64,000 nt of DNA, taken from the NCBI GenBank assembly GCA_030704615.1, contig CM060731.1, positions 57,474,001 to 57,538,000 on the forward strand, written 5' to 3'. Below, piece by piece: positions 175 through 45,652 of the stretch (position 1 is the first letter of the stretch; every line of letters begins with the position of its first letter). The notes beneath the pieces are model-generated. The model worked only from the letters and a program-made list of their open reading frames with translations, was not told the DNA's origin and ran no database searches. A program made the position numbers and the translations under genes. The DNA is from Takakia lepidozioides (lineage: Eukaryota > Plantae > Bryophyta).

Positions 175-176
175 TT

Positions 177-17547: not shown

Positions 17548-19768
17548 TTCTTATATGGTTAAGTTTCACCTACTTCCATATGTATATGGTTTCTTGACAA
17601 TACGGATGATAATCATACTGGTTTCATTCCCCTTTTGCGCCTAGTTGCTATGGTTTTGTGGCATACTGATGGGATTTCATCTCATTTTCATCCTGTTATG
17701 ACGAAGTGCATCCTGGAATGGCCATCGCTATGATAAACCTGGTTCTTTTCATCCTAGTATTCTTAACAACTTTCATTGACTGACAACTGTCAGCTTTGGA
17801 ATAAATTAATTACCTGGATGAATGTCGCAGCCTGACACTAAATCGTCAATGCAAACCCTATTTCCTCCTTTGTGCATTGACATCTCTTGCGCGATGGCGG
17901 CATGATGAAGCCAGGGGGCTGAGGCAAGCCGTTACGATAACCACTTGCTTGGCTTTTTTAAGGATTCTATGAATGATCCCTCATTGTTCAATTATTAACA
18001 CCAGCGCTTCTTACAACATCCAGGAAGGTTATCGTCCTTGCTGAAGTGATTGCTGTCGAGGGAATTCATGCAGCAGTTATGAATGACAGGCTGCTTCGGT
18101 GTTTCTGTGAATCCTTCCCCCTGAAGCAATTATGAACGGTGGCACTCCTTATGCAAGACAAGAAGGCACCCTTCCTCTTTATAATGCATGCTTTGCTTGC
18201 ACTAGCTCATGTTTTTTGCTCAGTCTCACTTTACTAGGACTTGGAGCTGTTGGAGCTGCTCACTGTCTTTGTTCAAATCTGTTTGCAAGGACGTCGTGGT
18301 GTTTGGTGCAAGGGCTTGCTGCTGTCTTGCTCAATTTATATGCAGGCTGGGGAGCTATGGCTAGGATCCCCCAGATCGTTCCAACGTTTTTTTAAATCTG
18401 GTTTGCTACCCTAGGAATTATGACATCTTGTTTTGCTTGAATTCTGATTGTTGGACATCGATAGCAAGTATGACCACCTGCCACTCACCTCGTGCATCCT
18501 CACTAACACCCAATATTCTTGTGGTGGTTTTTGGGACGGGCACAGGTGAGGGTGGTCATTTGACATGATGATTTTCTAAGCATACAGGACTTCGTGGTTT
18601 CTTCAAGGGTACAAAGGGCTGTTGCCTACCGACTCGTTCATCAGGGAATATCGTACCATCTCGATTTTCTGGTTTTCACAAACTACAAAGCTTCATGTCT
18701 TGTTTTTTGTCATTCAAGGACAATAAAGATCTTTGTTTACTAGTTTGGGACAATCAAGTTCCAAACTTATGACTTCATTTGCTGGTCACTATTCTGACCT
18801 GCATATGTTTTTCTCAGAACCACAAGGGGTACTTGTTTGTTTTTCGCAAACCCCTAGCATCTACATGACACTCAGGCCGTATGGAGTTTTTCAACTGTTC
18901 TGTTTATGATACCCTGCAGTATTAATTGTGAGACCTCTTTTTCATACCATAATATCTGTACTGCTCTAAACAGATTTTTGACATGCTGATAATATCCATC
19001 AGACATGTACACTAGGCTTTACAGAGTTACATGGGATACATGCCTGGATTTTCAGTCACATTTAAACATCTGCATGGCTTTTTGATACAAAGGATACCTG
19101 GAAAATAGCATCTGTACTTGATGCTTAATAATAATCTTTCAGAGCTGTATCGAATGGCAGTATTTGCCTTTTTGTATCTGCAAACTTGGGATACAAAGGC
19201 TAGAGCTTGTATGTGCTGGAATATACCCATTTGGAGCACTATAGCAACCTGATAAACGACATCTCCACAGGATGCATAACAATTATCAGGGATATGCTAA
19301 GTAAACAGCATGATGTCTCTTTGGCCTTTTAGCTCTGGACAATCAAGATACATTGGCAGTATGGTAAAAGATATTTTGCATTCTGGAAGGGCCATGTTAT
19401 GAAAGCAAGGAGATGACTTTCAATTTTGCTCTGGGCCTGTATGTGCTGTCTAAAATATGGAAACATGGGTGTGGAAAACTTCCCACGCTCCCACCCATAT
19501 TTTCAAGACTTTAAAGGTTCAAAAATATGTCAGGCATATATGTTGAATCAACTGAAACCTACTCTGGTTTTATCAAATGAAGTTTGGTTAATGCTCTTGT
19601 TTTTAAGAAAAAGTTTGATTCTGGATTTCTTAAGGTGCAGATGGATGGTGCCACTGTTTAGTGGCTGATTTGTCAATTTATTTTTTTGACTAAGACCTTA
19701 GTGGCCTTGTCCATGTCCCTGACAAGGCATAGTATCTTCCCTCTCCCTCTCTCTTTTTAACTTTTTCT

Positions 19769-20487
19769 GCAGAGGGGTCAACTCTGAGGTTAAGAAAACC
19801 ATGCTTTGTCGTATTATTAGACCTGCCTTGGAGTACGGATCTGCAATATGGGTTGATAAATCTGACTTAGAGGCTGTAGTGTCCAAAGCCATGTCTGTTG
19901 CCATGAGATTGTCTGATGAAAATGAAGTTAGGCAGAAAACTTCCCTGAACTTGTTTCCAGTTAGTGACATGGGGGAGGACATCTTGGATGACCTCAAGGG
20001 TCTACCCACTCTCGGCACTAGACTGAAATTTAAACTCAGGGCTGGAAGCATGCCTGTGAACAGCAAACAGAAGCAGAGATGAAAGGGAGAGTGCAATTGC
20101 CCGTTGTGTGGGCAATCTGAAGACAGTACTCATTTTCAGATACACTGTCCGGGTTTCTCTCACCAAAAAGACGCTCGCTTCAAATCTATCAAGGGAATTG
20201 TGCCTGTACCTCTGTTTAACAACTTTGAAAGTTTCAAGGTTGAGCCAAAAGCCCAGGCCCTCCTGAGGCCTAGTTATTGGGCAAATCACACACAGCAGAT
20301 TGATGCTTGTGTGAAGGGATTTCTAGAGGATATCTGGAAAACCTATATTAATTCTATATATGAAGGTAATTCTTACTACCAACGTCAGCCCCTGACAGAG
20401 GCAGATTCTGTCCCTTTTGTTTTCGCTCAAACTGGGCGCGGGGTCAATGGCCACAAGGCTACGACAAACAACCTCTTATGAGTACAA
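19769..20487 (+). mobile_element. 5'-truncated non-LTR retrotransposon (LINE ORF2 3' end with CCHC finger; possibly RTEX-like)
   Basis: IIRPALEYGSAIW (RT thumb), KFKLRAG, CPLCGQSEDSTHFQIHC; flanked by a 17-bp direct repeat TCTTTTTAACTTTTTCT (19752-19768, 20488-20504). Confidence 0.8.
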
Positions 20488-20551
20488 TCTTTTTAACTTT
20501 TTCTACACCCTCTCTCCCTTGTGTGGTTTGTTTATTTTTGTGAGCAGCAAA

Positions 20552-21966
20552 AAAGAGAGGGAAGATGTTTTGTCATGTCAAGACAAAGACAAGACCCCTA
20601 GGGTCGTTGTCATGAAAGAATAAACAGACATATCAGCCACTTAACAGTGGCACTATCCATCAATCATCAAGCTTAGAAAATCTAGAATTACATCCATGCA
20701 CAGCAATGTGTTCATGTCAGTATTGTTCATAACCCAAAGAGTATGTCACTAATGCTGATTGACCACCAGTCATGATCATGATACACTTTCAGAGGTCTGG
20801 GTGGGGTGGCGGGTACTTGGCCTTGATGTGGTGCAGGTCAAATAATCATACAGATTTACTGTCTGCAAGCTGTAATCCAATTATATTTACCAAAACCCCA
20901 TGGGTATCATGGAGGGTTTTCTTAAAAAAGAAAGGAACACTTGGATATCACAGATTTAAATGCCTTGCCTTGCCAGTATTTGTTTAGACTGGTGTGCAAC
21001 ACAGCTTGTCCCCACAGGGGAGGTGGATATGTCTGGTAAGTTTTCCAGAATACCCCTATACCTTTATTTCTTGCTACAGCTGAAAATCAAAGCTCATGAC
21101 GCATCAAGGTAAATATAAAGGACTGCATACACATCCTGTGATAGTATATGATACTGTCAGTACACCCTTCACATCATTCCACAGTTGACCATGTCATTAC
21201 ACCATGTCCATGGGGTATTTCCACTTGACCACCCTGGCTGCCTCAAAAACCAGTTACCATTTATATTACTGCCATATTTCAGTGTCAGCCGAATAGCCAC
21301 AAGCAAAAACTTCACCATACCCTGGCCTAAGCATCTAGCTGACAAAGCCATCTGGGTTGGAACATAACAGGGGTTTTTTTACCAACAAAGGTACCCAAGT
21401 AGCTGCAGCAAACAGTTCCTTGCAGCCTTTCAATTTGTTTCCAACTACCATAAGGTAAGCAAAGCAAAATGAGTCCTTGGCAAGCGATTCCTTCCCCCGC
21501 TCTGCAATCCCACTTGGCATCCAGCAGCACCTAGACATCAGAATATTAAGTGGAAGCCCTCACCTGTGCCCGTCCCAAAAACAACCACAACGCATTGTGA
21601 GTTAGTGAGGATGCACGAGGTGAGTAACATGCTTCCACACTTGCTATCGAGGTCAAATACACTTCAATCTAAGCGCAGGGAAGCAAAACAAACAGAAAAA
21701 GAATTTTTTTAACTGTTTGGGGGAGAGTCGTCATCTCTCCACAAGCCTAACCGTGAAGGGTGGATTCCACCAGCACCACAACACTGCTACCTTAACCAAA
21801 ACAAGGTCTTGCCAAGCACAAGAAAAAAGAGCTTGGTCTCAAAAGGTAGGGTTTATAAAGGGGGAGAGAAACTTCCTTGTTCTACCCAAGATGCCGTCAT
21901 TCATCAAAGATCCAGAGGAGGGCTCCTAGGGAAACGTCATAAGCATACAGGTGGTACCTCCGCCAC
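20552..21966 (+). repeat. Repeat Y copy 2 plus first ~75 bp of adjoining repeat X
   Basis: Colinear with 15082-16716; broken at the inversion breakpoint ~21967. Confidence 0.82.
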
Positions 21967-21967
21967 C

Positions 21968-24189
21968 TCACAGCCCCAAAGGCCTCAGGCACGGCCTGAC
22001 ACAGCCCCTCACAGCCCGTCACAGCCCGTCACAGCCCCAAAGTCTCAGGCACGGCCTGTCACATACCCTCACAGCCCGTCACAGCCCAGGCGTCTGCCCG
22101 TCACAGCCGCCACAGCCCTCACAGCCCTAAAGGCCTCGGGCACGGCCTGACACAACCCCTCACAGCCCCTCACAGCCCGTCACAGCCAAAGGCCTCACAC
22201 GGCCTGTCACAGCCCTCACAGCCTCAGGCCACGGGCACAGCCTGTCACACGCCGTCACAGCCCACAGGCCACTGGCACAGCCGGTCACAGCCCGCACACC
22301 GACCACTCACAGCCTGTCACATGGCCGCCCCATCCATGGCCGCTCTGGCAGTTTAGCCATTTCTCCAAGGGGTTTAGCCACGCCAAGCTAGGGTTTGTGT
22401 CTCTTGGACTCTAGGCTTTCTTCCACCGAGCTATGGCGGCTGTGAGGAAATCAGCAAGGTATTCTTGCTCTTTCGGCTCCCACACACCACCATAGTAGCC
22501 CTAAGCCATGAGGTGGTTGCCACAAACCAAGCCTTCTTTCTTACTTAGCCTCCCCAAACACGCCACTAAACTCAATGGCAAACAACCAAGCCCTGCTGGT
22601 TCCCAGCCCTTATGAGCACTCATTCAAGCACTCTCCTTGGCCATAGCATTTGTCTTAGAGCCTATTCCCCCCCTACACCTGCTGCTTCAAGAGTTGCGCT
22701 CCCTTCAAGCTTGAAGTTGAAACCCCAACTCACATAGGCCCTACAAGTGCTTCTTTCACTCCAAGTGGAAACCAGCCCTAGACCTTCCGTTCTAGCTCTC
22801 TAAAGCTTGAAAACAAGAGCCTCAATGGGCTGAAGGCATGCTCCACACATGCCCCACTCTCACCATAAGAGAATCAGCTCCTTTGCTTCATTTCTTGCAC
22901 CCACAAACCTGAAAATACAAGCTTTAGCAGGCTGAAAGCATGCTCCACATGCCCTACAGGGAAACCAGCCCCTTCCTTCCTTTCTTGCACTCCCACACCT
23001 GAAAGTGCAAGCCTTCACCAGGCTGATAGCATGCTCCACACATGCATTGCCCTCACATAAGGGAAGTCAGCCCTTCCCTCTTCCTTGCTTGCCCTCCAAG
23101 CTTGAAGATGGAAGCTTCAATGAGCTGAATACATGCTCCACACATGCAACCTCTTCACACACGAGATATCAGCCCCCTATCTTGGCTCCTTGGCTCCTTG
23201 ATGCTCTCTAAGACAAGACTAAGCACTCCAGAGCCTTTGCCAAGCTCCTGAAACCCTAAGGCTTACATTTCCAGCCACAAGACACTTCTCTTGTGGTGCA
23301 AGAGCTCTTCTTCCAAGCTCTGAAACCCTAGGTGCACATTCCATGGCCTTGCCGTACCTCTTAGCTCCTGTTCTAGCCCTGCTCTTGCCATGACAAGAGC
23401 CCTCTCAATGCTGAAGCTCGAGATTGAAACCTAATCTCACCATACACCACAAAGTGCACTGATTTGCCCCAAGCCAAATCAACCCTTTCGCTTGGTCTTG
23501 CAATCCTTCACACAATGAAAGCTCGCATTCCCAAGTCCAGTTCTCAGCTTTGCCACCAAAGCCACTATAACCTGCTCTTGACTGGTCCTCTTCCCAATCG
23601 TGCTTGCTCATGCATGTACACAATCTGAAACCATCAAGGTGCTCTGGAATTACCTGCAGCATGGTGCTTTCATCTCTGAAGCTGAAGATCGAATGCCAAG
23701 GTCTACCACCTCGTAACCCACATCGCCTCCGCTTCTAACAACCGAGAGCTCCACGCTGCTCCTTGCATAACAACTTGGTTTCTCTCATTCTCAAGCAAAA
23801 ACCACAAGTGCTACAACTAACTCGTATCTGGCACTCACAGATACGAGCTCATCTTTCTCGAGTGATAAAGAAGAAGAATACAAGCACAAGCTCATGCGAG
23901 CTCACAAAGCTGAAGCATAAACTCATGCATATATAACCTCATCACTCAAATACAAGTCAAGCCAAATGCACCCCACGCCATAGGGAATCCACACTACGGC
24001 GCCATAGCTAGGCGCGGTGAGGCTCAACTCGAGAAAGATGAGCCTCCCGCGCTTGCCATGAAGATAACCACTCCAGGGCCTAAATCTGCATTGACCCCTG
24101 GATTGACACTTGGGCCAATCCCAAATGTCAATATGTAAAAGCTAGTTATTTCCTAGCTAGTTTCACACTAGTGGTAAAATAACTTGACA
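21968..24189 (-). mobile_element. Inverted 5' terminus and 5' UTR of Gypsy element C
   Basis: 23863-24189 is the revcomp of 33686-34012; the GGGCTGTGA array at 21968-22320 continues into 25147-25330 once the inversion is undone. Confidence 0.8.
23863..24189 (-). repeat. LTR segment P (5' terminus of element C, TGTCAAG...TTTATCA)
   Basis: Near-identical to 33686-34012; flanked by GCCG (24190-24193 = CGGC on -). Confidence 0.9.
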
Positions 24190-24379
24190 GCCGGCAGAGC
24201 AAACGGATTGTCCGCCCCTTTCTTTGGGGCAGGGGACTTCTTCTCTTTCCCCATAAGCTGGCATCTGTCATGCAAACCCACAAGTTGGCCTCATTAGGAA
24301 ACAACCTCTACATTCCAGATCAAAAACAAAAAAAACCAAGCATGTCGGGGGCTAAGAGCAGCAAGTGCTCGGGGTCTCG

Positions 24380-25146
24380 AGAGGGGACAACAAAGAGAAA
24401 ATAAAAAGGTGGGGGGGGAAGTGACTAAGCACCACCACCAGCTGCTGAGCACCTACGGGCTCAGTCGCTCCCCGCGCCCCCCCCCCCATTTTTTTTTTTT
24501 TTGGTTTCCTGATCTCTCCCTCTCTTTCCCTCTGGAAACTGAGCTTGGAAAAAAATTGCAAAATTGGGTTGTAGGGAATTTTGGATTTTTTTCATCCAAA
24601 ATACAAATTTTTCCCTAGTGAAATATTTCTTCACTAAATACCTGTGAGTTGCAAAACTCCCGTAAGTTTCTACTTTTTCAAATCCAACCTGGATGAAAAA
24701 AGGACTTCATCTGACAGGACCTAAATACGGGGCAAGACATGTATAAACCCCCGATGTTTTTCATCTAACCTAGATGAAATACGGACTACATCCGTTGAGT
24801 GCAAGACAGGATGAACGCACGATGTCTTTCATCTTCCGCGAATGAGAAACGGACAACGTCCGTCGGGCGTACAAGCTGGCGGATGTTTTTCATCCTGAGA
24901 AGGATGAATGACGGGCCAGACAGGGGAAAACCCTGCGCAACCCTAATGTCTTTCTTTTTGCGCTGCGAGAGCGCGCGCGATGGCGGCTTGGGAGGAGCGA
25001 TGGTGCTCGTGCTACAGATACCTTAAGCTGCCAATCCTTGAGTGTTTATGGCTCCTGTGAGCGCCGCCTAGGCGGGCTCTTTAAGGCGATGGCGGTGGCT
25101 TAGAGATGAGGGAAGATTCCCTGTCTCAGTTGTCTGTTTTTTTGCT
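24380..25146 (+). repeat. Repeat X, copy 3 (inside inverted segment)
   Basis: Matches ~13820-14506 and, extending further, the reverse complement of ~16740-17547. Confidence 0.82.
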
Positions 25147-26085
25147 ATGACGGGCTGTGAGGGGCTGTGACAGAGGCCTTTGGGGCTTGAGGGGCTGTGG
25201 GCCGTGCCTGAGGCCTTTGGGGCTGTGAGGGGCTGTGGCGAGCTGTGACGGGCTGTGACAGCTGTGGCTTGTGCGGCCTGTGGGGCTGTGACCCTGTGAC
25301 CTGTGTAGGGCTGTGACAGGCTGTGGCATGTGAGCTGTGTGGGCCTGTACTGGTCTGTGGTGGCCCGTGTTGACCTGTGGACGGCCTGTGCTGACTCGTG
25401 GAGGCACTGGTGGACTGCCTAAGGACTGTATGTGGTCTGAAGGCCGAATTTTGAAGCTCGTGGAGGGCGGTTTGAGGAGTATCTTCATGATATTCCCATG
25501 GTCATGCAAGTGAGGGAGAGAGGAGAGGAAGAGTGTTGGGATGAGGGCATGCTGGGGTTAGGCATTGCTTTAGCTTCTCTTCCTCGTAGTTTCCACCCTC
25601 TCATTAGGCCAAGACCTTTCCGTAGGTGGAGGCAAGAGTCAGTCCGGGTTTGGGCTGGGGTGTCCTTGCAGGAGCAACACCGTGGAGTTGTTTTTGGTGT
25701 GGGGGAGTTGTCTGATTTCTTGTGTTTGGATCCCCTCCATACCTGCATGCTTGACTGTGCGCCATGCTAGTTTTGTGTGGGCGCTTGTTTTTATAGGTGA
25801 TTGGTCCGGATTTGATCACCGGCCAGTCCTAGAGCATGCTGTCGATGGTGAGGCTGGGGTGATGACCAGCCAGACCATCATTGTTTCTCCTGTGGTGAGG
25901 TTGGAGGTGATGACAAGCCAACCATAGGAGTGCTTGCGGTGGATGCAGGTACAGGTGTAGGCTATGTTAGGAACTTAGTATTCCAAACCATAAGCCGCAA
26001 CAGGTTCTCTACCCGGTTACCTTGTGGAGAGGGGGTTAGGGACATGTTCATGACCGGTTGAGTGTCAACACGGAGGTGCCACTAG

Positions 26086-27630
26086 TTGCTGGGGACAGTG
26101 CCGGTTCGAGCACTAGCGATACTAGTGGGTACACGAGACGAGGTGTGCGGTTTAGGCCACCTTCACCTCCTGTGTCTTCTACGGAAGGTTCTGATTCGGA
26201 TTGTGAATCAGGAGGACTCATACCGGCGGTGCAAGTTGTTTCTTTGCCATTGTTGTGGGACACAATGGAGGAGATGTATGGAGCTACCAAGGGCGGTGGG
26301 CACCATCGAGTTGGATGATTTTATCCAAGAGTTTGATAGTTGGTGTGATTTGCAGCAAATGCGCAATCCACAACTATTTACGCCTTTCATGGCATGGAAG
26401 GGGCTGTTTCAGCACCTTGAGGGGCCGCCTATGGATGATTACCATGAGTTCAGGCGGGGGCATGAGGTTGAGATCGAGGAGTGGAGGATGTACTGGTCAC
26501 CCGACTATGTCTCCATCACTAGGGGCACTAGAGCCACGAGGGCAGTGGCTACACCTGCCGCTGCACCGGCAGCTTCAGCAAGTAGCAGTGGGACTAGTGG
26601 GACTGGTGGTACAGTAGCTACGACGTCCACCCAAGCCACTACCGCACCAGCACTAGCACCCGTGCCTGCCTTCAACCCTGTTGTGGAGTTCTTCGAAGAG
26701 TTGAGAGGGAACTACCAAGGGGTGAGGACAGAGAAGTTGCGGAGCTTGCAAGAGTTCCAACGGAAGCCGACCGAGAGCTTGAGGGAGGCTTTCACTCGCA
26801 TGAGGCGCTTGATAAATGTAACCCAAGGGGTTACGGAAGCTCAGGCAGTCCAATTCTGGTATGGGATATTGGACAAGGAGCTGAGGAGAAGGGTGCGGGA
26901 TGCAACTCTCCTACAAGCGGCCCAACCCACCTTAGCAAATGTGTTTTTGCTGGCAGAGCGGATAGAGCTCAACATGGTGGAGGAACGAGTGGTCATGGTG
27001 GGATTTGCTAAGGAGACACCACGGGGTAGTGGTGCTCCTAGCCAACCACTACCTCAACGTGCTCAAGGCAACAAGGGGCTCAGGTGAAGCTCAGGGAAGG
27101 CAGAGAGGACCTCAGATGCAGGGGTCTCTCCCTTCATTTGCTGGCCAACAACGGGCGGATGTGGTGCTGGACATGTGGAGGACCCCATGTCAAGAAGGAT
27201 TGCCCAGAGGGAGGCAAAGGGCGGCACATGCACAGCCTGCACAGTTGCAGTGTGGGCATTGTGGCAAGCACGGGCATGGAGAGGCCCAGTGTTATGGTTT
27301 GCATCCTGAGTTGCGCCCAGGCCAGTTCCAAGGGAACAATGGTGGCCGGGGGCGAGGTGGAGCAGCCCAGAGAGGACGAGGTGGCCAGCCACGAGGTGCA
27401 GGCCAAGGGCAAGCTCAACATGGCCAAGGACGCGGAGGTCAGGGTGTTGACCAAGGCATGGCCAACCGGCTTCAGCAGCTAGAGCAGAGGCTCGCTGCCA
27501 TGGCTACAGCTCAGGTGGTACCGGCTCTAAGGCCGGATGGTCCACCTCCTGCTCCTGAGGGAGGAGATATGGGAGGCATGGGATTCATGTGTGGAGCAGC
27601 ACTACCACTAGTGCAGGGAGTCTGCTGCAG
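26086..27630 (+). pseudogene. gag: gag of element C (Gag domain, two CCHC knuckles, RG-rich tract), frameshifted
   Basis: LQEFQRKPTESLREAFTRM; CWTCGGPHVKKDC; CGHCGKHGHGEAQC. Confidence 0.82.
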
Positions 27631-28169
27631 CCGTGACTCGAGGAGCAGCACGAGTTCCTGAGCCACGAGGTGCAGAGGTGGAGTTGGATCCACAGCGTGG
27701 GGAGGCAAGCCGTCAGGCTAGGCTTCCTCAGTCATTCACATTGGCGGAGACAGTGTCGACGCCATCCATGGCACCTAGTTCTCGCCCGACTGTTACCGAG
27801 GCGGAGGTTACTATGCCATTGGGGAGAGCTACACGGGTAGCACCACTACCTAGTGTTGCCAAGGCTACGGCAGCTAGTGTGCTGCTAGGAGCGGCCACAT
27901 CTGTGTGCCAGGCTCCATTGTTCTCGGCTACCATGATTGCGACGCCGGGGGTAAGACCAGCTGAGGTGTTCAGGCTGGCAGCTACACTCTGTGAGAGTGG
28001 GGGTTACTTCATCTTCTGCGGAGATAGTGGGAGTGTAGTGCCGGAGGGATCCTCGGATTTGAGGGTCAAGACTGCCACGGCGGCGCCATGGCAAGCTGCA
28101 GCTGCCAGGTTGATGGAGCTGCCAGCTAGGCCAGCCATTGAGCGCGCCATGGTGACACCTGGAGTTGTC

Positions 28170-28560
28170 ATGTTAGACAACCAGGATGGCATTTTCTGTT
28201 TGAGTGGACCGGCAGGCAAGAGGTACCGGCCACTGCGGGTCTTGTTGGACTCGGGAGCTCAGCCATTGATGCTGGGCAGAGCTGCTATTGCAGGCTTGGG
28301 CCTCACGGAGGCGGATATGGAGCCTTGTCCTTTCCAGATACAGACGTCTCTGGGAGGATCGGAGCAGGCTCGGGGCATGACACGGCGTGAGTTGGCTATC
28401 AGACTACGGCCGGATCACCCTACAGATGGCTCAGTGATGCGAGCCAAGGCCATTGTGACAGACGCGGTCTCATACGATGTCCTGGTTGGTGGGGCAGTGT
28501 TGTACCCCATGGGCTTCACCCTGGATTTTTGGGAGGAGTCAGCTTCCTATAGGCCTGCAT
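28170..28560 (+). CDS. Retropepsin aspartic protease domain
   Basis: RVLLDSGAQ ... SYDVLVGG in ORF 27633-29216. Confidence 0.82.
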
Positions 28561-28960
28561 GGCAGTCAGGGGAGGGCCGGCGTGTGCAGCTCCCTGTGAC
28601 GTTCATAGGAGGAGTTGCGGTTGCCCAGCGAGGCAAGATGCCGACACTAGCAGCATTCACAGCGGCAGTGAGTTGGCCTAGAGAGTTGCTTGAGGGCAAC
28701 GCTCATTCAGAGGATGTGCCACCTCCGGGAGAGCAGGATGACATGTATGGTATGGCGGAGTTGCCTACCATGGTTGCTCAGACTCCATTGTGGGGCACGA
28801 GCAAGGATTTGCAGCGGATGCTGATCGACGGGTGCAACAAGCCTGGGTGGAGGCTTTTGTACCGTCAGGAGAGGAGGAGAGTGTGGGGATTGCACCAGGA
28901 CCACCTCAGTTGTCTCCATTGGACACCACACCTATTGTGTGGCAGTATCCGGATGAAGGC

Positions 28961-29900
28961 ATTTGTCTTCTGGACTTGTTTGGCGGGATCAGCACCGGAT
29001 TGGCTGCTGTGTTACAGGCAGGTGTACGAGTTCGGCGTTACCTGTATGTGGAGAGGGATGAGACTGCACGACGCGTTTCACTTCGCCATGTTGCTCAGTT
29101 GGTGCAGCGGTACCCTGAGTTGTGTCGGTGTCTGCAATTCGTGGATATCAGCAGGCCTTGCCAGCAGACATTTCGTTGCTGGGGGCGCAGGATTTGGAGC
29201 GGGTTGGCTCCATTGATCTGGTAGTGGCAGGTTGGCCCTGCCAAGGGCATTCATCAGCCGGGCATGGCAATGGATTGCGAGACTCGAGGTCGGGTCTGTT
29301 TTGGGAGATGGTGCGGGTTTTGCGCCACTTGCAGCTTCATCAAGCTGTATCTCCAGCATACATCTTGGAGAATGTGCCACTGATGGGCGATTCTCGGGCC
29401 AGGGTGATGGCCAGTGTGCATCAAGTCCGGTCGTGGCTTGGGTCAGCAGTGTTGCTAGATGCAGCTACAGTGGGGTCACGGCTCATCGTCCACGGCTATG
29501 GTGGACTAACTTGATGCCACCCGCACTGCTCAAGCGTGCATTTGATGGGGTGCAGCGGCCAGCACATCTCACAGTGGATAGCATTCTGGACACAGGGAGG
29601 CAGTCTCAGCGTGTGAGACACGATGACCGTTCGCCTTTGGCAGTGGTCAACAAGGTGGGTCAACCACGAGCAGCATTACCTACACTGCTCAGCTTCCCAG
29701 GATCGCATGCTTTCCGGGATAGTGGACCTGGCCTCCTGTGGGATGCTCAGTTGCAGCAGTTAGTGGAGCCTAATGCTGACGAGCGTGAGCGGGCAATGGG
29801 TTTTACCACTGGTACCACGGCGGTGTCGTCTCTTTCTGAGGCATCACGTCGTCAAGTGTTGGGGCAAGCAATGGATCTCAATTGCTTGACCTGGATTATC
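28961..29900 (+). pseudogene. C5 cytosine DNA methyltransferase domain (DNMT3-like) within the polyprotein; 2-3 frameshifts
   Basis: Motif I LLDLFGGISTG, II YVERD, IV DLVVAGWPCQG (catalytic PC), RSGLF, VI ILENV, VIII DAATVGS.AHRPRLWWTNL, IX ERERAMGF, X RRQVLGQAM, all in canonical order. Confidence 0.92.
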
Positions 29901-30299
29901 AGCTTGGCTCTGGCTGAGCAACGCAGAGTGCGGAGTACACTTCCCTCATGGTCTCTCTGCCTACCGAGACGGTACAGGCAGTGAGTGGGGGCGAGCATGT
30001 GAGGACCACGGGGTGCATGCATCCATGGCACACGTGGGAGGTGCTCGAGGTTCAGAGGGAGTTGGCAGCCAAGGCGGCTGTGATGGATGAGGTTGGGGAT
30101 TCTTCTCGGTTGAGGAGGTCCTCAAGGATGAGATGATGGGGCAGGATGAGGCCTTGTCATTGACTGAGCAGGCAGGGAGTACTGCTCAAGAGGTTGCAAC
30201 ATAGCAACCACTGGACGCGTCCTCTACCTCTAAGCCCACTGGACTTAAGGTTGCAGTTACGGAGGACAATTGGGAGCCTGACATTGGACCCATTGTCAC

Positions 30300-31620
30300 C
30301 GGAGGAGAGAGACGACGTATACGGCGGTTCCTGAGGGCTTACAGGAATTGCTTTGCCTTCAGTTTGAAGGACTTGGGAGCACTGAAGGGTCAAGAGATCC
30401 GTATTGAGTTGGCCACTGACACGCCAATCTTTCGGAGACCCTATAGATACAGTGACATGGAGAGGTCTTTGATTCAGATGAGGACTCAAGATCTCTGGTT
30501 GACGTATGTGCGGTGATTACCGGCCTGTAAATCGTCAGACCAAGTCCGATAAGTATGCCATGCCAACACCAGAGGAGATCTTTGATGCCATCGGGCATGC
30601 TAAGGCCTTTAGCACTTTGGATTTACGATCCGGATATCACCAGTTGCCAATCAAGGAGGCGGACAAGCAGAAGACGGCATTCTGGGGGATCAATGAGCAC
30701 GGCAAGGATTGCCTATATCAGTGGCGGTTCTTACCATTTGGGCTTAAGAATGCTCCTGCAGAGTTTCAGAGAGTCATGGATAGGATTCTAGCAGGGGTGG
30801 ACTTTGCTCGGTGCTACATAGATGACATCATCATCTTTAGTGTTACGATGGAGGAGCATGAGAGACACCTTCAGGTGGTATTGGAGCGCTTGAGAGCGCA
30901 CGGATTGAAGTTGCATCCGGGGAAGTGCAAGTTTTTCCACAACCAGATTGAGTATCTGGGTCACATGATATATCCTGGAGGATTGGGGGTACAGCAGACT
31001 AAGGTAGAGGCATTGCACAAACCACGCCCCACGGATGTGAGCCGAGTTCGAGCTTTCATGGGGTTGGCAAACTATTATAGACGGTTTGTCAAGGGATTTA
31101 GTACCATTGCAAAGGCTCTAACCAAGCTGACCAAGGTGGACCAGGAGTGGCAGTGGGAAGATGAGCAGGAACGAGCTTTTCAAGAGCTCAAGGCGAGGTT
31201 GACCTCGGCGCCTATCCTGAGACGACCTATCAGGGGGCGTCCCTTTCAGCTGCATACGGATTGGAGCATGCTGGGGCTTGGAGCGGTGCTCACACAGGTG
31301 GATGATGAGGGAAGAGAGTTCGTAGTGGCTTATGCTAGCCGCTCGAACAACGCTGCAGAGGCTAAGTACAGCTCATATGAGGGAGAGTGCTTAGCTGCAG
31401 TGTGGGCCGTGGCACACTTCAGGTGCTATCTATACGGCAATCTTTTCACCCTTGTCACGGATCACCAGCCACTCAAGTGGTTGATGGAGTCAGACAAGCT
31501 TACGGGGAAGCTTGCACGGTGGGCACTCATACTCCAGGAGTATGACTTTCAGGTTGTGCATCGACCGGGTTTGGTCAATCGGGATGCGGATGGATTGAGT
31601 CGCAATCCATGCATGAGCCA
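30300..31620 (+). pseudogene. pol: RT and RNase H of element C (deletion in RT N-terminus at ~30495)
   Basis: [31 protein letters not shown]; LHTDWS, YSSYEGEC, TDHQPL, ADGLSR. Confidence 0.93.
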
Positions 31621-31949: not shown

Positions 31950-33244
31950 TCGGGTGAGGATTGTGCCTCACCCCACACAGCGTGCACGGTTAGTGCGGCA
32001 TGCCCATGAGGAGTTGGGGCATTTTGGAGTGCGACGCACTCAGTTTACTGCAGGGGCAGTATTGGTGGCGTGGTATGCATACAGAGGTGCAACAGTTCGT
32101 GGCTAGGTGCATGGTGTGTGACAGGGTGCGTGCTTCATTCAACGCCCCTACACCACAGTTGCATCCTTTACCAATCATGGGATTGGGCTACAGGTGGAGT
32201 CTTGACTTCGCAGGACCGTTGCCACTGACTATGCGCCACCACAGATATGTGTTGGTGATGGTGGAGCACTTCTCCAAGTGGATTGAGTTGGTTCCATTGC
32301 CTGACAAGGCTAGTGAGGGGGCTGCGTATGCATTCTTGGATCGTGTGCTTAGCCGATTTGGTGCTCCAGCTGAGGTACTCACGGACCAAGGGAGAGAGTT
32401 TCTTGGGGGAGTTTCAGGCTTTGTGTGATAAAGCCTTGATAGACCACCGCACCACTTCTCGGATCATCCTGAGGCCGATGGCTTAGCAGAGAGAGTTGTT
32501 CAGACGGTGAAGAGGGGTTTGCGCAAGTATGGCTTGCAGAAGGGACACCTAGGAGATTGGGATCTTCAGGTTCCTTGGTTAGCCATGGGCTACAGGTTCA
32601 GCAAACAAGCATCACTTGCCTCCTTCTCACCATATTTCCTTCTCTTTGGCCGAGAGCCGGATTTGCCTGCAGCCATTCGTAGGGACACTGCTCAAGTCCT
32701 TAACCTTGACGATCCGGACGTGTGGGTACGTGCATGTGATCAGCGTGCAGAGTTGTTCAAGAAAGTCATGCCCATGGCTTTTGAGAACCTTGCCATTGCA
32801 CAACACCGTGATACGTTGAGGTATGCCACTATACGTGGTGGAGGATATCGTCCTGGGGTTCGGAGGTTTAGCCCTGGTGACTATGTTTATTTGCAGCAGA
32901 CTGCTCCTACGACTCTGGATGTTACTGCAGGGCGTGTTATTCTGAGGGTTCGAGAGGTGTTGCCCTCAGGGGTCCTGATCTTGGAGGGTCGGGATGGCAT
33001 GACTTGGAAGGACCATGTGCGTAATTGTGCGCCATGTCACCTTCCCAATGTCGATGGCAGAGTTGACCCAAACTTGGCAGTGGTACCTGCAGGTTTGAGG
33101 TGCATGCTCTGTGGGTCTGCCAAAGGGGCAGCCACCATGCTGGTGTGTGATCGATGCTCAAGGGGTTGGCATATGGGATGCTTGACACCACCTCTTGAGA
33201 AGGTTCCTGACGGAGATTGGTTGTGTCCACACTGCTTGGGATAG
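31950..33244 (+). pseudogene. Integrase with C-terminal PHD finger (33101-33235)
   Basis: H..LGH..YWW..CMVC, WSLDFAGP, TDQGREF; CMLC..LVCDRC..WHMGCLTPPLEKVPDGDWLCPHC (C4HC3). Confidence 0.9.
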
Positions 33245-33504
33245 TGGCAGTGGACATGACTGGAGGCAGCTAACAAGACATGGGAGGCCAAGCTCATAGG
33301 AGTCAATACATGAGATCCCAAGCTCAAGTTCACAGGTTGCAAGACGGCGACTAACGATGGGGCAACTCTTGCACCCGGCCTCTTGATCTATCGAGTTTGA
33401 GTGTAGTAGGGATAGTGGTGGAGGACTTAGTGAGGCTATGGTCACTATCACATCTTGTGGCTACCTGGACTTAGAGGGACCTAAGCACCAGCTAGGGGGG
33501 CGAT

Positions 33505-34012
33505 TGTGTGGACTAGTGACTGCCATAGTGGGCAGCATAGTGGCAGCCTAGTGACTGACTAGTTGTAGCCTAGTGGTTGGACTAGTGGTGGACTAGTGGT
33601 ACTATAGTAGTGTGTGGTGTGCACATGTGTTGTGTGGTTTTGGACAGCGATGTAGTTGTGTAGCGATATGTATGCGCACGACAGCTGTCAAGTTATTTTA
33701 CCACTAGTGTGAAACTAGCTAGGAAATAGCTAGCTTTTACATATTGACATTTGGGATTGGCCCAAGTGTCAATCCAGGGGTCAAGGCAGATTTAGGCCCT
33801 GGAGTGGTTATCTTCACGGCAAGCGCGGGAGGCTCATCTTTCTCTCGAGTTGAGCCTCACCGCGCCTAGCTATGGCGCCGTAGTGTGGATTCCCCATGGC
33901 GGGGTGCACTTGGCTTGACTTGTATTTGAGTGATGAGGTTATATATGCATGAGTTTATGCTTCAGCTTTGTGAGCTCGCATGAGCTTGTGCTTGTATTCT
34001 TCTTCTTTATCA
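33505..34012 (+). repeat. Complete LTR of element C = Q (33505-33683) + GC + P (33686-34012)
   Basis: Starts TG right after the PPT, ends CA; P repeated at 23863-24189, Q repeated at 34014-34187. Confidence 0.85.
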
Positions 34013-34013
34013 T

Positions 34014-34187
34014 TGTGTGGACTAGTGACTGCCATAGTGGGCAGCATAGTGGCAGCCTAGTGACTGACTAGTTGTAGCCTAGTGGTGGACTAGTGGTGGA
34101 CTAGTGGTATACTAGTGTGTGGTGTGCACATGTGTTGTGTGGTTTTGGACAGCGATGTAGTTGTGTACGATATGTATGCGCACGACA
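34014..34187 (+). repeat. Second copy of LTR segment Q (3' terminus of element C, ...GCACGACA)
   Basis: Direct repeat of 33505-33683; followed by CGGC. Confidence 0.9.
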
Positions 34188-34191
34188 CGGC

Positions 34192-37309: not shown

Positions 37310-39297
37310 TGGATGCCCAAACGCGCATTGTAGTCCATTTCTGTTGGTGATTCGCTGAAGAGGCCACAACACCAAAGCTGGATAAACGATTCTTTCTGAT
37401 GGATCGCAAAGTGATGGGCGACGCGACGACGGCTTGCCTTGCAAATCTGTATAGCTCCGTTGATCTTAACTGACCTGTCACCCCACTCTTCTGTACTCAA
37501 ACTCGATCTTAAGTCCTCGAGCTCAAAATCCAAGGTCGTAATTCCGTCACCAGGTTGTGCAAAATACATCAGACTAAAGCCGTAATACTCATCGACCAGG
37601 TCCTTCACCTTTGAGGCCGTAAGAGCACTTTCTAGAAGGTCAATCGTGAACCCCAACCTGGGATGCGTTTGGGAAACTAACCTGCCATGATTTCTTACAT
37701 CGTTGTGGGCCAGAATTCTCAAAAGGAGTGGTGGCAGTCCAATGTGCGGTTTTGGTGAGATTCTCCATTTGGCTGATCAATCCTTCCGCAAAACCGCGAG
37801 TGAATTCCAACGGATCTGGAACAACCAAACCTTCGATTCCATCTACAGTAATAGTGATGACAAGAGGATTTGAAGTTATGGCATCGTCAAGGTCGGTATT
37901 GCCAAGAGCTGGTTCGTCCATCGTGTCATCATCATGTGAGGCTTGGCTCTCTCGATGGACTCGTGTAAGTCTCCCACATTTTTTCTTTTTCTACTTTGGC
38001 ATGTCAGGATGCCCAATTCTCTCCAAATTCTCCTTCACCCGATTCAATTCCTCTATCATTAACGAACCATGATCCGGCGGGGCTGTAAACCCTTTGGGGA
38101 CAGCGACAACACTGTCCATATCATCGCTTCTAAGATGATGTCGAGCTCCCTGTGCAATACAGCGTGAGGGGTTACACCAGAGAAAAGGGTTACAACACGA
38201 GGGGTTACACATGAAAAAGGGTTATAAGGAAGGTGGGCTACAGGGCAGATGGATTTATGTATAAGGGTGTACAAGGTATGTGGTTTACACGGCACATGGA
38301 TTGAAACAAGGGTTACACAGAGGTGGGTTACACACCATAGGGATTTTAAAAAGGGGTTCACTGTAGGTGGGTTACACTCTGGGTTACACGCCAGAGGAGA
38401 CAGGCGGGGGGGGGGGGGGGGTAACACAAAGGGTTACACGGATAGACAACAGTCCAAAATTTGAAAAACAAAGAAATGGCAGGGAATCCAACTTGAATGT
38501 CCAACGATAGAACCCAACTTGATTTTGCAGCTGTCGCATAGACTGCGCCCTCGCATCGCACAACAAATTCTTGGAATGCCGGCCAAAACCCCTTCTCATT
38601 GACATTCGGAAAATGGGAACTGAGGAATAAGGCCATGTGGTAGCAGAAGGATCGAGCCTGGAGTTCGCTTTCGCAAGATGAACCTTGAGCTCCGGTTTCC
38701 CCGGTTTCCAATGTTGATTTTCTTTGCAATAGGGACAGGTAAAGGCGGGCTCAATCGCCGCTTGTCTCTCTCGTTAGGAACCTGCCGAAGAGAAGGACCA
38801 GGGACAGAAACAGCAGGAGCAGCAAAAGATGGAGCCTTTGTAAGAGAAGTAGCCGAAGAAGATACAACAACAGGCACTTCAATAGGATCTGCAATCTCAC
38901 CCAAAACCACCCTATTTTGCAGAATCCATGCATGATATGCATCAACAGAAGAAGCCGGAACATAATTCACCACATTTTCAACAACCATGGCATGCTTGAG
39001 CTCCGCATCAAAAAACGGTTTTGTTCTTTTCGGTCAAGCCATACATGCGGCCGTTCCATTGACAATATGTCGATTCAATCTGCTCTTATCTACCTTTACT
39101 TCCCCACAGTAAGGACATTTGAACTTAGGCCGGCCCTTTGCTCCCTCCACCTTGGCCTCTCTACACCTGGTGTGATAGTACGCGATCATTATAGCATGCT
39201 CATGCTCAGTGTACCAGAAGCGAACTCGTTCGACATCCCTCTTCAAGTGATCAAATGGAACACTAGCCTCTCCAGGGAACAGATAGCAATCAGCCAT
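37310..39297 (-). pseudogene. Spliced ORF of unknown function with an N-terminal C2H2-like zinc finger, interrupted by the CACTA
   Basis: FKCPYCGEVKVDKSRLNRHIVNGTAAC; AG acceptor at 38150-38151; frame continues across the TSD into 8011-8051, followed by a GTAAGT donor. Confidence 0.55.
38165..38440. repeat. GGGTTACAC repeat array (intronic)
   Basis: Repeated GGGTTACAC; same motif as 7751-8005. Confidence 0.75.
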
Positions 39298-39414
39298 GGC
39301 AAAAGAAAAAGCTGATAGAAGAGAAGAGAAGAGCAAGAGCAAGACAAGACAAGACAAGACCAAGAGAATTCCAAAGAACGCACAACAAAGAGCACGCACA
39401 ACAGGGAGTGCAGG

Positions 39415-40143
39415 TGTCACGCACCTCACTTCGGTAAGCTCCCCTTCAAGTTATAGTTACTCGCTTTGATGCGCGCGCCTAACTCCCAAACTGGCCGCCG
39501 GGCCAACTCGGAGCTTCGGCTGCTCACCGGGACATAACGGTCCCCCTTTACTCCTCCACAAGACCCTCTCTCAATTTGGGCCTAGTAGAAATTCCCTTTG
39601 GTCGATGGCAGTCTGGAACAGCTCCCCACACCTTGGTCGCTTTCCGGCTCGCACGCTTACTCACTCGTTTTTGGTCACCCACGGGCTTGCACCGTTCTCG
39701 GGGTTACTACTCCCTATATATACTTCTATGACTGTCCGCGGGGGTTTCACAAACAACCATGCCATTTTATGGCGAACCACCACGAAAACCCTCGACTCTC
39801 GGTGATGAGTCGCGGTGAGTCTTGGCCCACCCACCACGGTCCCATTGGACCGTGATGAGTCCCAAGACTCCCCACGACTCCCACCACAAGGTCTTCGCCC
39901 CCATGGTGAGTCCTATGTACCACCCCCACTAAGTCCCACTAAGCTACCACCCACCCCTCGTGGAACCACCCCCACCGCAACCCGGTGTGCAGGGCTCCAC
40001 CTAGTGAGCGCCTCCACCTCCTTGAGTGCCTTGGGTACTCAAGGGTGCTTCAGCCCCAGCATCTATTATTGCCACTGCCCCCACCATAGGGGCAGCCCCT
40101 GTCGTGTCCCAACCCCCTGCCCTCAAGGCAAAGCGTCGTGACA
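39415..40143 (-). repeat. 3' LTR of element B
   Basis: Bounded by the inverted repeat TGTCACG...CGTGACA; first 500 bp match 45655-46154. Confidence 0.85.
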
Positions 40144-41048
40144 CACACCCCTACCAACAGGGAGTCGATGCCATCATCGACTTGTCCATTTTGTAGAAAC
40201 GAACATCCAAGTTGTGGCGTCCCACATCAAGGAGTTTGTTTCCGTACCATGGCCTCCCATGGCAAAGAACCAAACCCCCCCACTTGACTCTACTCTCCAT
40301 TAGCTAGTTCGGCCGACTTCTTCCAAGTCCCGGCCGAGGGTGGAGCCTCTCAAGCTCCTCCCAGTGCACTCTTCTTGGCCTACTTCAAGGCCAAAGAACG
40401 ATCCTCCCCGAGGATCGAATCGCCTTACTGCAACAACATTGCTTGCAACCACTCATGATGCCGCTTTTGGCATCACCTTGAGCAAGGGTTCATCTTGAAC
40501 CCCTTTTTTGACTAGGAAGATAACCTTGAACAAACCGTGCGCCCCAATCACTACAATTGGGTCCGCCTTGGAATGCTGGCCTGAGGTACGGGACCGCCGA
40601 AGCCGCACTACGACTTCGTCCGAGGCTACACGATTATAGTACATGAACGGAACCACATAGCTTCCGCGTTAGCCCGCACTACAAGGCAACCCCCTCGGTA
40701 GCGCAGTTATAGTACGCGCACGCGCCAGGTACGCACTAGCATGTGAACTCCCAAAGAATACGCAATTTTCCTTGCCCCTTGGATGGGAGTCACCCGATTT
40801 CGGCACTACGCAAACACACGATTATTCCAATTTACCTCTCCTACTTTTGTAAACTAGCATGCATTCTACACACTAGCCAACCCTACCATGTATCTCCATT
40901 CCAAACAAAATAGGACGCACAACATTTGGAAACCATTTCATTTATAACAAAATTTGTACAACACAAGTTTTTGCAATCAGATTCCTGAGCTAGCTAAGCC
41001 GGACTAAGCATGCATTTCCTCCCCCACAATCCAAGGTTGATGTCCCCA

Positions 41049-44000
41049 TCAACGCTTCTTCCGCTTTTGAGATCGCCCTTCGAAAGCTGCAACCGCCTCG
41101 GATGCGTTTCCCATTTCTGAGGCACGCACCCAAGATGCCTCCACATGATGATAGTCCTTCCATTTCACGAGATACTCCGTTTCTCGATTCTTGAACCTCC
41201 TCGACTTAAGCACTGCCTCCACCTCGTACTCAGGTTCATTTTCATGATCCAACAGCAAAGGTGGCGGATGCAACACTTGATGCCGATTTGGACGCGCTTC
41301 ATCTTCAAAGTAAGGCTTAAAAAGGGAGACGTGGAATACCGGGTACACCTTGCTATTTGCCGGCAGCTCCAATTCATACACATCCTCATTCATAACCTTC
41401 CGGATGCGAAAGGGTCCCGCATACGGAGGTACGAGCTTCGGATTCACTTCCGGAGGTAGTCGGAAATTCTTGATGTTCATCCAGACCTCCGTGCCTGCCT
41501 CAAACTTAACTTCCCTCCGCTTCCAATTTGCCTGCCGTTCATATCATTTCCTAGTTTTGGCAATGTTGTACTTTGCGAGTTTCAACAAACGCTCGCGTTC
41601 TTCCAACACCGCTGCTGCTGCCGGTTCCTCAACGTCTTGGGCGGCCCAACTTGTCGGCACCAGAGGTGCTTTTCCATAGACCAATACGAAAGGGGAAACT
41701 CCCGTTGCGGAGTGTTTTGTGTTATTATAACAGAACTCTGCCGCATCCAAGTGTTCCACCCAGTCCAATTGGTCAGCCGACACGTAATTCCGCAAGATCT
41801 GCTTTACCATGGAATTCACCATTTCCGTTTGGTTGTCCGTTGTAGGTCGGAAGGCGGTGCTCATCTTGAGCCTCGTCCCCATTTTCTTCCAAAGTGCCCT
41901 CGAAAACTTACTTGTAAACTTTGGATCGCGGTCCGAGACTATATCCTTCGGGAGTCCATGATGCTTGAAGACGTGGGCGAAGTAGAGTCGTCCGTTTCGT
42001 GCGCCGTTGCCGTTTCCTTGGTGGGGATGAAATGGGCCATTTTACTGAACCTATCCACCACCACCATGATTGCATCGAATCCTTTCGACAGCGACATAGC
42101 AGTCATGAAATCCATCGAGACATTTTCCCAAGACCCCTCTGGAATCGGCAAGGGTTGTAACAGCCAGCTTGCTTTTTGTACTCGCTTCGATTTTGTTGGC
42201 ATGTGGTGCATGTCTTCACATACTCCTTGGCCTCCTCCCTTAGTTTGGGCCAGAAATACTCTTTCTTTAGGAGTGCCGCGGTGCGCTTGGCTCCGCCGTG
42301 GCCCGCAAGCGGGCTATCATGACATTCTCTCCAGAGACTATCTCTTATCCTTCCCTTCGGCACGTAGAGACGCTTTTGCTTGTACCGGTGCAATCTTTTT
42401 TGCAAGTGGAACTGCGATTTAACCCCCATCCTCAAGTCCCGCATCACGGACTTTGCCATCTCATCCTTCCGGTAAGCCTTCCGGATCTTCTTTTGGAGCG
42501 CCGTCTCGCCCTCGTACACCAACATGAGCTGTTGCTTTCTACTTAAAGCATCGGCCACCACATTGTCCCATCCCGGTTTGTACTAGATATCCACGTCGAA
42601 CACCACCAAAGTGTCTTGCCACCTAAGTTGTTTTGGGGACAACTTAGGCTGCGTGGCAAAATACTTCACCGTGACATTGTCCGTGAACACCTTCACCGGG
42701 TTGGAACCAACATAGTGACGCCAAAGCTCAAGGCAATGCACCACCGCCTTCATTTCTTTCTCATGCGTAGGCCACCGTCGCTCCACTTCATCAGTTTCTT
42801 ACTTTTGTAAGTCATTGGACGTCCATCTTGCATGAGCACACCCCCAATTGCGAAGTCCGACGCATCTGTATGAATCTCAAATGGACGGTCGAACTCCGGA
42901 ATTTTCAAGACTGGAGCTTCCGCCATCCGCTGCTTCAACTCGGCAAAAGCTTGGCCACAAAAGGTGTTCCATACCCCTACTTTAGACTTACACAGAAGGT
43001 CTGACAGTGGCCCCGCGATCTTGGCGAAATTTCTCACATACTTTCGGTAATAGGAGGTGAGTCCTAGGAAGGATTGCACTCCCGGGACCGATGTCGGAGG
43101 CTCCTAATCCAAGATCACCCTCACCTTTCTGTCATCCATTTTAATCCCATCCTGTGTAATCACATGCCTAGGAACTCCACTTTTGTGATCCCGAATTCGC
43201 AATTTGAAGCTTTGGCATACAGCTTCCCTTCCCGCAATTTCTGGAACACCCTTTTTAGGTGGTGCTCTTCCTTTGTTTTCGAGTACACCAAGATATCGTC
43301 GATGTACACGATCACAAAGTCATCCAACCACTCCTGGAAAAGGCTGTTCATTAGCGTGCTAAAGGTCGCGGGTGCGTTGGTGAGCCCAAAAGGCATCACC
43401 AAGAACTCATACGAACCATATCTTGTCCTCCACGCGGTCTTCTCCTCATCTCCTTCCACCACTCGGATTTGATGGTAGCCCGAGCGCAAATCGATCCGGC
43501 TGAAATACTTCGCTCCTGCCAACCGATCGAAGAGGTCATCGATCCTTGGCAAAGAGTACCGGTTCTTGATAGTCACATTATTCAGAGCCCTGTAATCGAC
43601 ACACATCCGCAGCGTCCCATCCTTCTTGTCTACGAATAGCACCGGGGCCCCGTAAAGTGACTTAGTCGACCGGATATACCCCTTTGACATTAGATCCTTG
43701 AGCTGAGTCTTCAGCTCGACCAACTCTCTGTGGCTCAACCGGTAGGGCGCCTTGGCAGGCGGCTCCGATCTTGGTATCACCTCAATCTTGTGGTCAACTC
43801 CTCTTCGCGGTGGGCAAGCCGCTTGGTAAATCCTCCGGCATCACATCTTGGTAGTTCTCCAAAATTCCCTTGATCCAATCTGGGCTCGACTCCCTATCGC
43901 CTTCTCCCTTCACTTGTCTTACGTAAAGCAAAAACTGGGGCTCGTGTGGCTCCTCCACAGCCCACTCCTTTGCTGACAACAGGTTTATTCGCCCTCCCAC

Positions 44001-44400: not shown

Positions 44401-44405
44401 GTTTC

Positions 44406-45599: not shown

Positions 45600-45640
45600 G
45601 ATGAGGCCGATCTCAAGGACAATTGCGTACTGAACTCTAA

Positions 45641-45652
45641 GCTCTGATACCA
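45641..45652 (-). promoter_or_regulatory. PBS complementary to initiator tRNA-Met (TGGTATCAGAGC)
   Basis: GCTCTGATACCA 2 nt from the LTR end. Confidence 0.95.

Follow-up and report, generated by a model that had tools for sequence, protein, structure and literature searches.

The window, that is the whole stretch of 64,000 nucleotides from Takakia lepidozioides that was analysed, contains a defunct copy from a family of Ty3/gypsy retrotransposons with its own DNMT3-type C5 methyltransferase (DNMT, here also called methylase). Pfam scans and sequence comparison gave the domain order gag, protease (PR), DNMT, reverse transcriptase (RT), RNase H (RH), DDE integrase (IN) and PHD finger, all encoded on the plus strand. 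The gag with a zinc knuckle and a Gly/Arg-rich stretch (26265..27510; PF03732, E 9e-4; PF00098, E 0.08; 54% to P0005 from Marchantia; frame breaks near 27074–27165) and the aspartic protease with LLDSGA at about 28245 (28140..28600; PF13650, E 0.023; aligned to P0005) have Pfam scores under Pfam's cut-offs for gag, zinc knuckle and protease. Behind the methylase follow the RT with its YIDD motif and the RNase H (30253..31600; PF00078, E 4.6e-33; PF17917, E 3.8e-36), where about 90 nt are missing at 30500 relative to relatives, then the DDE integrase with a zinc-binding domain (31970..33040; PF17921; PF00665, E 3.5e-11; frame breaks near 32040 and 32400–32460) and, at the integrase C-terminus, the PHD finger (33101..33235; PF00628, E 4.1e-11, and PDB matches). 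Many of the frame breaks are gaps of 1–2 nt and may be assembly errors. The order gag-PR-RT-RH-IN with a DDE integrase is that of Ty3/gypsy elements and a target-site duplication, TG...CA ends and a polypurine tract (PPT) are also present; in place of the two complete direct LTRs between primer site and PPT that belong to this class the element has a split layout, A...B-A-B. It does not belong to the DIRS/tyrosine-recombinase class, as it has a protease and a DDE integrase, nor to the chromoviruses (Tcn1), as the integrase carries a PHD finger in place of a chromodomain.

A segment of about 3.2 kb at the left end, recognized by repeat continuity, is inverted (21976..25143, minus strand) and comprises the 5' part of the element (21976–24189) and its left flank (24190–25143). 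The host repeat at 20553–21975 runs on into the reverse of 25143–24381 in its other copy (15081–17530), the 5' region's tandem repeat keeps its register over the inversion break, CGGC flanks the element on both sides and the empty-site joint 24194/34188 occurs in 4 contigs of run X3; thus the reversed A repeat stems from an inversion, which is either real or an assembly error. The pair 23863–24191/33684–34012 was also considered as inverted terminal repeats and rejected, since its left arm lies inside the inverted segment. On the element's own strand both target-site duplications read CGGC (24190..24193, minus strand; 34188..34191, plus strand). The 5' terminus is repeat A1 (23863..24189, minus strand; 97% identical to 33684–34012), which starts with TGTCA. 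Abutting it lies a likely self-priming primer-binding site (23847..23862, minus strand) that lacks the TGG start of the tRNA type and is complementary, in a 17-bp match, to an arm inside A1 (24028..24043, minus strand), the likely 5' end of the transcript and primer; none of 200 control positions reaches this length, the maximum being 9. On the plus strand at the 3' end, a PPT (33494..33502) abuts repeat B1 (33503..33683; 97% to 34012–34187), which ends in GACA and is followed by repeat A2 (33686..34012) and the 3'-terminal repeat B2 (34012..34187), both found by self-comparison. The B|A junction is the palindrome GACA-GC-TGTC (33680..33689, plus strand), in which the termini stand head to tail around a 2-nt spacer, and at A2|B2 the primer-site end of A is joined to the PPT end of B.

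From the neighbours named in the sequence-only reading, a chromovirus with a Met-tRNA-type primer and an Athila-type element were confirmed, a CACTA element was not. The chromovirus (39411–46154, minus strand) has LTRs that are 97.6% identical, a Met-tRNA-type primer site and a chromodomain, and two Athila-type elements, 95% identical, lie at 46155–58491 (minus strand) and 1–7751 (plus strand). The named matches of their Pol were Riccia with 53%, Marchantia with 49%, Adiantum with 46% and seed plants with 37–47%, and a 702-aa ORF at 47295–49403 after the Athila-type pol gave no Pfam match. For the CACTA candidate no transposase match was obtained in the 32 + 12 window ORFs scanned; CACTAG strings occur inside repeat A. 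A short ORF at 39037–39450 (minus strand), interrupted near the chromovirus LTR, matches a C2H2-type zinc finger (E 0.001–0.01). The GCTGTGAC-type tandem repeat in the 5' region of the element (21968–22320, 25145–25372) is 69–76% alike to Athila-type LTR repeats (46777–47133, 58078–58370, 60293–60517), a likeness that might reflect either a shared regulatory array or exchange between families. CpG depletion was uninformative, with 0.46–0.58 for the element versus 0.15–0.40 in the Athila-type neighbours, the element not being the CpG-poorer.

The A...B-A-B layout is found not only in the window but also in the related loci L032, L040, L043, L051, L065 and L079, and a 4-bp target duplication flanks 7/8 elements with both ends, the one without being L043. 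Behind the PHD finger the motif GACA-nn-TGTCA is present within 1 mismatch in 14 of the 23 loci with a PHD match, against a background of 0.3 per 1.5 kb. In 7/8 elements (all except L051) the bases after A1 are complementary over 10–17 nt to a site inside A, using three unrelated sequences, and in each of them the complementarity exceeds all 200 control positions. The post-A1 site is thereby a likely self-priming site resembling those predicted for Tf1/sushi and Tcn1. We propose that the minus strand is self-primed directly past A1 and the plus strand at the PPT before B1, which would, with good probability, yield a cDNA with the true LTR B-nn-A. As standard reverse transcription gives this LTR and yet the inserted copies end in its middle, we infer that a joined circle is cut at the palindrome: the cDNA ends would be ligated (A|B), a staggered integrase cut at GACA^nnTGTC would create two CA-3' ends with 2-nt overhangs, and strand transfer would result in A...B-A-B with a 4-bp duplication, one-LTR circles giving A...B. 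We regard this step as somewhat favoured. The A|B joint indeed looks like ligated cDNA ends and likely points to integration from a circle; among 11 distinct joints four are aberrant, all of them in related loci: L043 and L079 differ in a single base, and L065 and L074 have lost most of B2. Both deletions begin at the A|B joint and spare the terminal GACA.

A doubtful alternative is that the ends are regenerated in the manner of DIRS elements, where the transcript would run into B2 and A/B template switches would rebuild a circle, B|A being copied from B1|A2 and A|B being inherited. This would fit the A-coding-B-A-B layout shared with SymbioDIRS and the remaining 7/11 A|B joints, which are constant within their own subfamily, together with the finding that B before A at the 5' end (the reciprocal form A-B-A...B) was seen in 0/22 distinct 5' ends. 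The chance of the latter is 2e-5 if the short forms were reciprocal products, and random cutting of a two-LTR circle predicts A-B-A...B, so that integration from a circle needs an extra bias with one junction always chosen. Against a DIRS-like route, the conserved PPT abuts B1 and the conserved primer-like site abuts A1 in the fashion of LTR elements, and in L065 and L074 it is B2 that is trimmed, starting at the joint, with B1 intact. The distinct 3' ends comprise 7 of the form PPT-B-flank versus 11 of the form PPT-B-A, and the short A...B forms are either one-LTR-circle products or B1-B2 recombinants. L009 (7131–15770) is of the A...B form, complete, flanked by a 4-bp duplication and lacking A2-B2, and L007 (1676–2014) is a solitary A repeat upstream of a protease with no primer-like site after it.

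The methylase of the window copy is spread over three reading frames with two frame breaks at about 29120 and 29480. Three-frame translation recovered all C5-methyltransferase motifs claimed before, on the plus strand, in order and between protease and RT: motifs I–II (LFGG, YVE; 28913..29119, by translation and protein alignment), motifs IV and VI (GWPCQG with the catalytic Cys, ENV; 29128..29478) and motifs VIII–X (HRPRLWWTNL, ERERAMGF, LGQAM; 29484..29936; 73–76% to P0005/P0001). In the suggested search with PF00145 the middle piece matches at E 1.8e-13; the first and third pieces alone gave no Pfam match and show 66–76% identity to proteins from Calypogeia and Marchantia. These two breaks are not shared by the whole family, since contigs from other copies deviate at each of them: all four runs have a row at 29479, and two have loose ends at 29123. 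The proposed DNMT3 likeness was supported with the unbroken domain of L002, whose best PDB sequence matches are DNMT3A/B/C (E 1e-11 to 1e-9), with HhaI, DNMT2 and the 4onj methyltransferase reaching no better than E 4e-4, and whose structure model (pLDDT 96.5) has DNMT3A as top fold match (E 3e-19, TM 0.71); the type is assigned by this ranking of PDB sequences and folds, in which the L002 domain stands nearer to DNMT3 than to DRM, DNMT1, DNMT2 or bacterial enzymes. Motifs I–X in linear order with the catalytic Cys, the ENV Glu and RxR, as in DNMT3-type enzymes, are all present.

The catalytic residues are retained in the family, with the motif IV Cys in 73/73 loci with cover at that position, in a set that was collected with motif IV and IX patterns and is thereby biased toward conserved copies, that contains duplicates of one insertion and that has an unbroken domain in only 4/74 loci. 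In A3 the Cys is kept in 71/71, the ENV Glu in 71/73 and the second Arg in 71/73. The methylase is also under purifying selection: between window and L002 pN is 0.19 at a saturated pS of 0.76, values resembling those of RT, IN and gag, and between L023 and L025 dN/dS is 0.13. Changes common to three or more copies have a dN/dS of 0.41–0.52, which we counted against the claim, and singletons one of 1.08–1.15. The methylase is predicted to be catalytically active, and its substrate is likewise a prediction. A second subfamily (L038–L080) has GWEC in motif IV and ENT in motif VI.

To describe the family, its abundance and its relatives were analysed. Parts of the element are contained in 13/17 runs listed, and in four runs from three studies the methylase has a contig depth similar to that of gag and 10- to 70-fold above the flanks. 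The summed contig depth, which is not equal to copy number, was 15,000–24,000 for the methylase, 20,000–23,000 for gag and 170–505 for the flanks in run X1 (one sample with X3, possibly the one from which the window stems), 740–810, 726–812 and 11–48 in run X5, and 113–181, 174–345 and 0–29 in run X6. A protein search gave 37 matches with Calypogeia fissa, Marchantia polymorpha and Sphagnum fallax on top; several of the top proteins are Gag-protease-methylase ORFs that end shortly past the methylase domain, and the domain order of the window element recurs in its relatives from Marchantia, Calypogeia and Sphagnum. Among the best 80 of 316 confirmed metagenome loci the methylase ends before the RT starts in 59/59 loci holding both; an exception in order is L063 (834–5090), where a single long ORF places the methylase after RNase H and ahead of integrase. 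At a threshold of E 1e-30, a profile search yielded 458 clusters formed at 50% identity. From the best 150 of these, 139 gave a probe match: 76 have the methylase behind RT/RNase H or ahead of integrase, 14 have it behind protease or ahead of RT, and 49 show no domain besides it. The order RT-RH-DNMT-IN was found in 19/21 long cluster members scanned, 18 of those 19 with PHD, and named members of the wider methylase clade include Scenedesmus sp. and Monoraphidium. These comparisons indicate that a large related clade, green algae included, carries the methylase between RNase H and integrase and that the domain has changed its place within the clade. Proteins P0193–P0333 share the single-ORF arrangement of L063, and two of them, P0247 and P0292, have a G-patch added after the methylase.

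Named relatives of the RT come from Calypogeia, Riccia, Marchantia, Closterium and Klebsormidium. Together with the matches of the protein search and of the Athila-type Pol they make a non-seed land plant the likely host, in line with the sequence-only reading. In trees of RT and DNMT (FastTree, chosen rows) the window adjoins liverwort and moss sequences, the rooting of the DNMT tree being unreliable with a phage-type outgroup and 108–209 aligned columns, and its identity to liverwort proteins is 72–75% for DNMT and 81–82% for RT. The one K. nitens RT in the comparison (P0150, 54% identical) falls into the wider clade and does not adjoin the window. The Calypogeia RT P0064 groups with the second subfamily, which apparently shares its kind of host with the first. 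Closterium RTs (P0084–P0128, 51–53% identical) lie within the wider clade, and P0084 starts with a remnant like motifs IX–X, which suggests a methylase in the Closterium elements too. In viral contigs only distant phage-type methylases were found (24–48% over short stretches, 59 loci).

Between methylase and RT, in the RT frame, lies an in-frame stop with a readthrough-type context, TAG CAA CCA (30202..30210, plus strand; TAG at 30202–30204), which was analysed in relatives. The position 17 codons ahead of the RT probe is a stop in 21/23 close relatives (TAG in 14, TAA in 7, and TAC, no stop, in 2), and no other position among the 39 linker codons is a stop in more than a single one of the 23; the methylase codon with the highest mutability is a stop in 10/30. 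A conserved stop in such a context makes it likely that the methylase is present at the level of Gag and not of Pol. The sequence-only reading had the enzyme packaged with Pol, which is not supported in that wording for the window's branch, since the methylase here closes the Gag-protease ORF and the conserved stop sets it off from the RT. It would thus likely be made together with Gag and protease and in excess over RT and integrase. The second subfamily (L038–L079) is mostly without a stop ahead of the RT and P0161 has no stop and a single 2240-aa ORF; these and the majority of the clade with its methylase in Pol show that bulk expression is not required.

Our main reading, to which we give a probability of roughly 0.6, is that the methylase is packed in bulk with Gag and likely methylates the element's own cDNA, which is then likely circularized and integrated. 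The domain order, the presence of the enzyme throughout the family, the intact catalytic residues and the purifying selection are its practically certain basis. At even odds, the cDNA would be methylated before integration, so that new copies arrive marked like host heterochromatin, and the PHD finger would tether the integrase to histone H3. The best PDB relatives of this finger are those of CHD4, KDM5B, PHF12, KDM5A, ATXR5 and PHF21A, several of which bind unmodified H3K4. Fusions of transposons and PHD fingers in general are already known from the text of bioRxiv 2021.11.30.470311.

Alternatively, the methylase might act mainly on chromosomal DNA, be it the target site, the integrated element or sister copies, for self-restraint or host benefit instead of cDNA marking. 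Bulk expression at Gag level would exceed the enzyme needed by one cDNA, the methylase adjoins integrase-PHD in most of the clade, and the authors of PMC5890265 raise this option in their text. Its retention across a very wide selfish clade would be explained more simply by a benefit to the carrier copy, and we regard chromosomal action as the main role as improbable. For cDNA marking by an enzyme made in bulk, we find it quite probable that ORF1 is translated in excess and that Pol (RT-RNase H-integrase-PHD) would arise by readthrough of the stop at a low rate. UAG CAR YYA is the readthrough consensus of tobamoviruses according to the text of PMC3542737. In 21/23 close relatives the stop position is followed by CAA CCC, which is the commonest context in the moss-like copies and, as a point against, matches this consensus at 5/6 positions, and the divergent loci have TAG CAG TTA (L023 and L025) and TAG CAA TCA (L061). 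In L023 ORFs of 1369 and 1047 aa abut at the stop. No RNA structure common to the region after the stop was found among five sequences folded.

The stop might also be the true end of ORF1, with Pol being made in another way such as from a spliced or shorter RNA or by re-initiation. ORF2-like proteins exist as separate database entries (P0177), but the frame is the same on both sides of the stop, a Gln codon follows it in three divergent branches in agreement with UAG CAR YYA, and neither the window nor L023 has a Met from the stop to where RT homology begins, which leaves such a true end rather unlikely. A chance capture or nested fragment in one copy, for which only the broken domain of the window copy would speak, is refuted by the relatives, the even contig cover of the family, the order kept in all 59 loci and the selection, so the methylase is a standing part of the family.

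The claimed precedent in charophyte algae exists in KnitGypsy-Dnmt3 of Klebsormidium nitens, which the text of PMC5890265 describes as a Gypsy element with DIRS-like repeats, a DNMT in Pol and a Ka/Ks under 0.2, and whose enzyme gave no methylation in yeast, an outcome that the authors call inconclusive. Both elements share the Gypsy domain set, an intronless, unrearranged DNMT3-type domain, purifying selection and the DIRS-like split repeats, in the window copy allowing for the inversion. KnitGypsy-Dnmt3 is described as having its DNMT in one ORF with RT and RNase H, as in the second subfamily and P0161, whereas an in-frame stop separates DNMT and RT in the window's branch. Furthermore, that text presents KnitGypsy-Dnmt3 as gained in the K. 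nitens lineage and as less numerous than its counterpart in Symbiodinium, whereas the window family is abundant and has relatives in liverworts, moss and green algae. PHD finger, priming, target duplication and mechanism are not mentioned for it in the text of PMC5890265, figures aside. SymbioDIRS-Dnmt3 from the same text also has a DNMT3 domain in a retrotransposon with A-coding-B-A-B repeats and was shown to methylate CG in yeast, but has a tyrosine recombinase and a DIRS RT, in contrast to the DDE integrase, protease and 4-bp duplication found here. EpiLTRs, by the passages of bioRxiv 10.64898/2026.05.21.726589, are LTR elements that likewise combine a DNMT with a chromatin reader, but have a DNMT4-sister enzyme, Dam and a chromodomain instead of the DNMT3-type enzyme and PHD of the window element, which has no Dam match.

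For Tf1/sushi and the Tcn1 chromoviruses a tRNA-free self-priming is predicted in the text of PMC6317226, but unlike the window element they have ordinary LTRs, a chromodomain and no methylase. Foamy virus integrase acts on 2-LTR circles with a palindromic junction, a 2-nt loss and one cut giving two processed ends (text of PMC1180852); in that virus the cut falls on the LTR-LTR joint itself and the provirus keeps ordinary LTRs, whereas the putative cut here lies inside the LTR and permutes it. The tobamovirus type I signal in the text of PMC3542737 is the same UAG CAR YYA, here a candidate signal after Gag-protease-methylase. Phygy (REXdb) prefers NCGN targets according to the text of PMC6317226, and 0/7 duplications seen are NCGN. 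In their accessible passages PMC12344493 and bioRxiv 10.64898/2026.05.21.726589 cite PMC5890265 for 'streptophytes', and PMC6453930 treats host plant DNMT3. Titles, abstract starts and passages of the literature contained no description of the land-plant elements or their mechanism; supplements or figures of the 'streptophyte' papers may hold copies. Thus, a methylase in a Gypsy element is already known, and not found in the searchable part of the literature were the land-plant and green-algal spread, the placement on the Gag side of a readthrough-type stop, the PHD finger, the priming site and the evidence for circle-first integration. More tentatively, the family may belong to an old Ty3/gypsy clade spread over the whole green lineage, with attachment sites at a palindrome inside the LTR, obligate circle integration, tRNA-free priming and a PHD finger reading histone H3, in which the branch that entered land plants would have shifted its DNMT3 out of Pol and onto the Gag side of a leaky stop, giving many copies of a de novo methylase per particle.

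In summary, DNMT3-carrying Gypsy elements are no mere oddity of Klebsormidium: land plants, among them the model liverwort Marchantia, harbour them as an abundant family under selection. As methylation mutants and methylomes are available for Marchantia, the gain of a transposon from its own methylase is testable there. The position of the stop predicts the dosage of the enzyme, and from the ends one would expect a naturally occurring circle-first integration by a DDE integrase, which in retroviruses counts as a marginal route. Elements with split repeats would likely escape LTR finders that require two complete LTRs, and DNMT3 counts in such genomes are possibly inflated by DNMT3-carrying elements.
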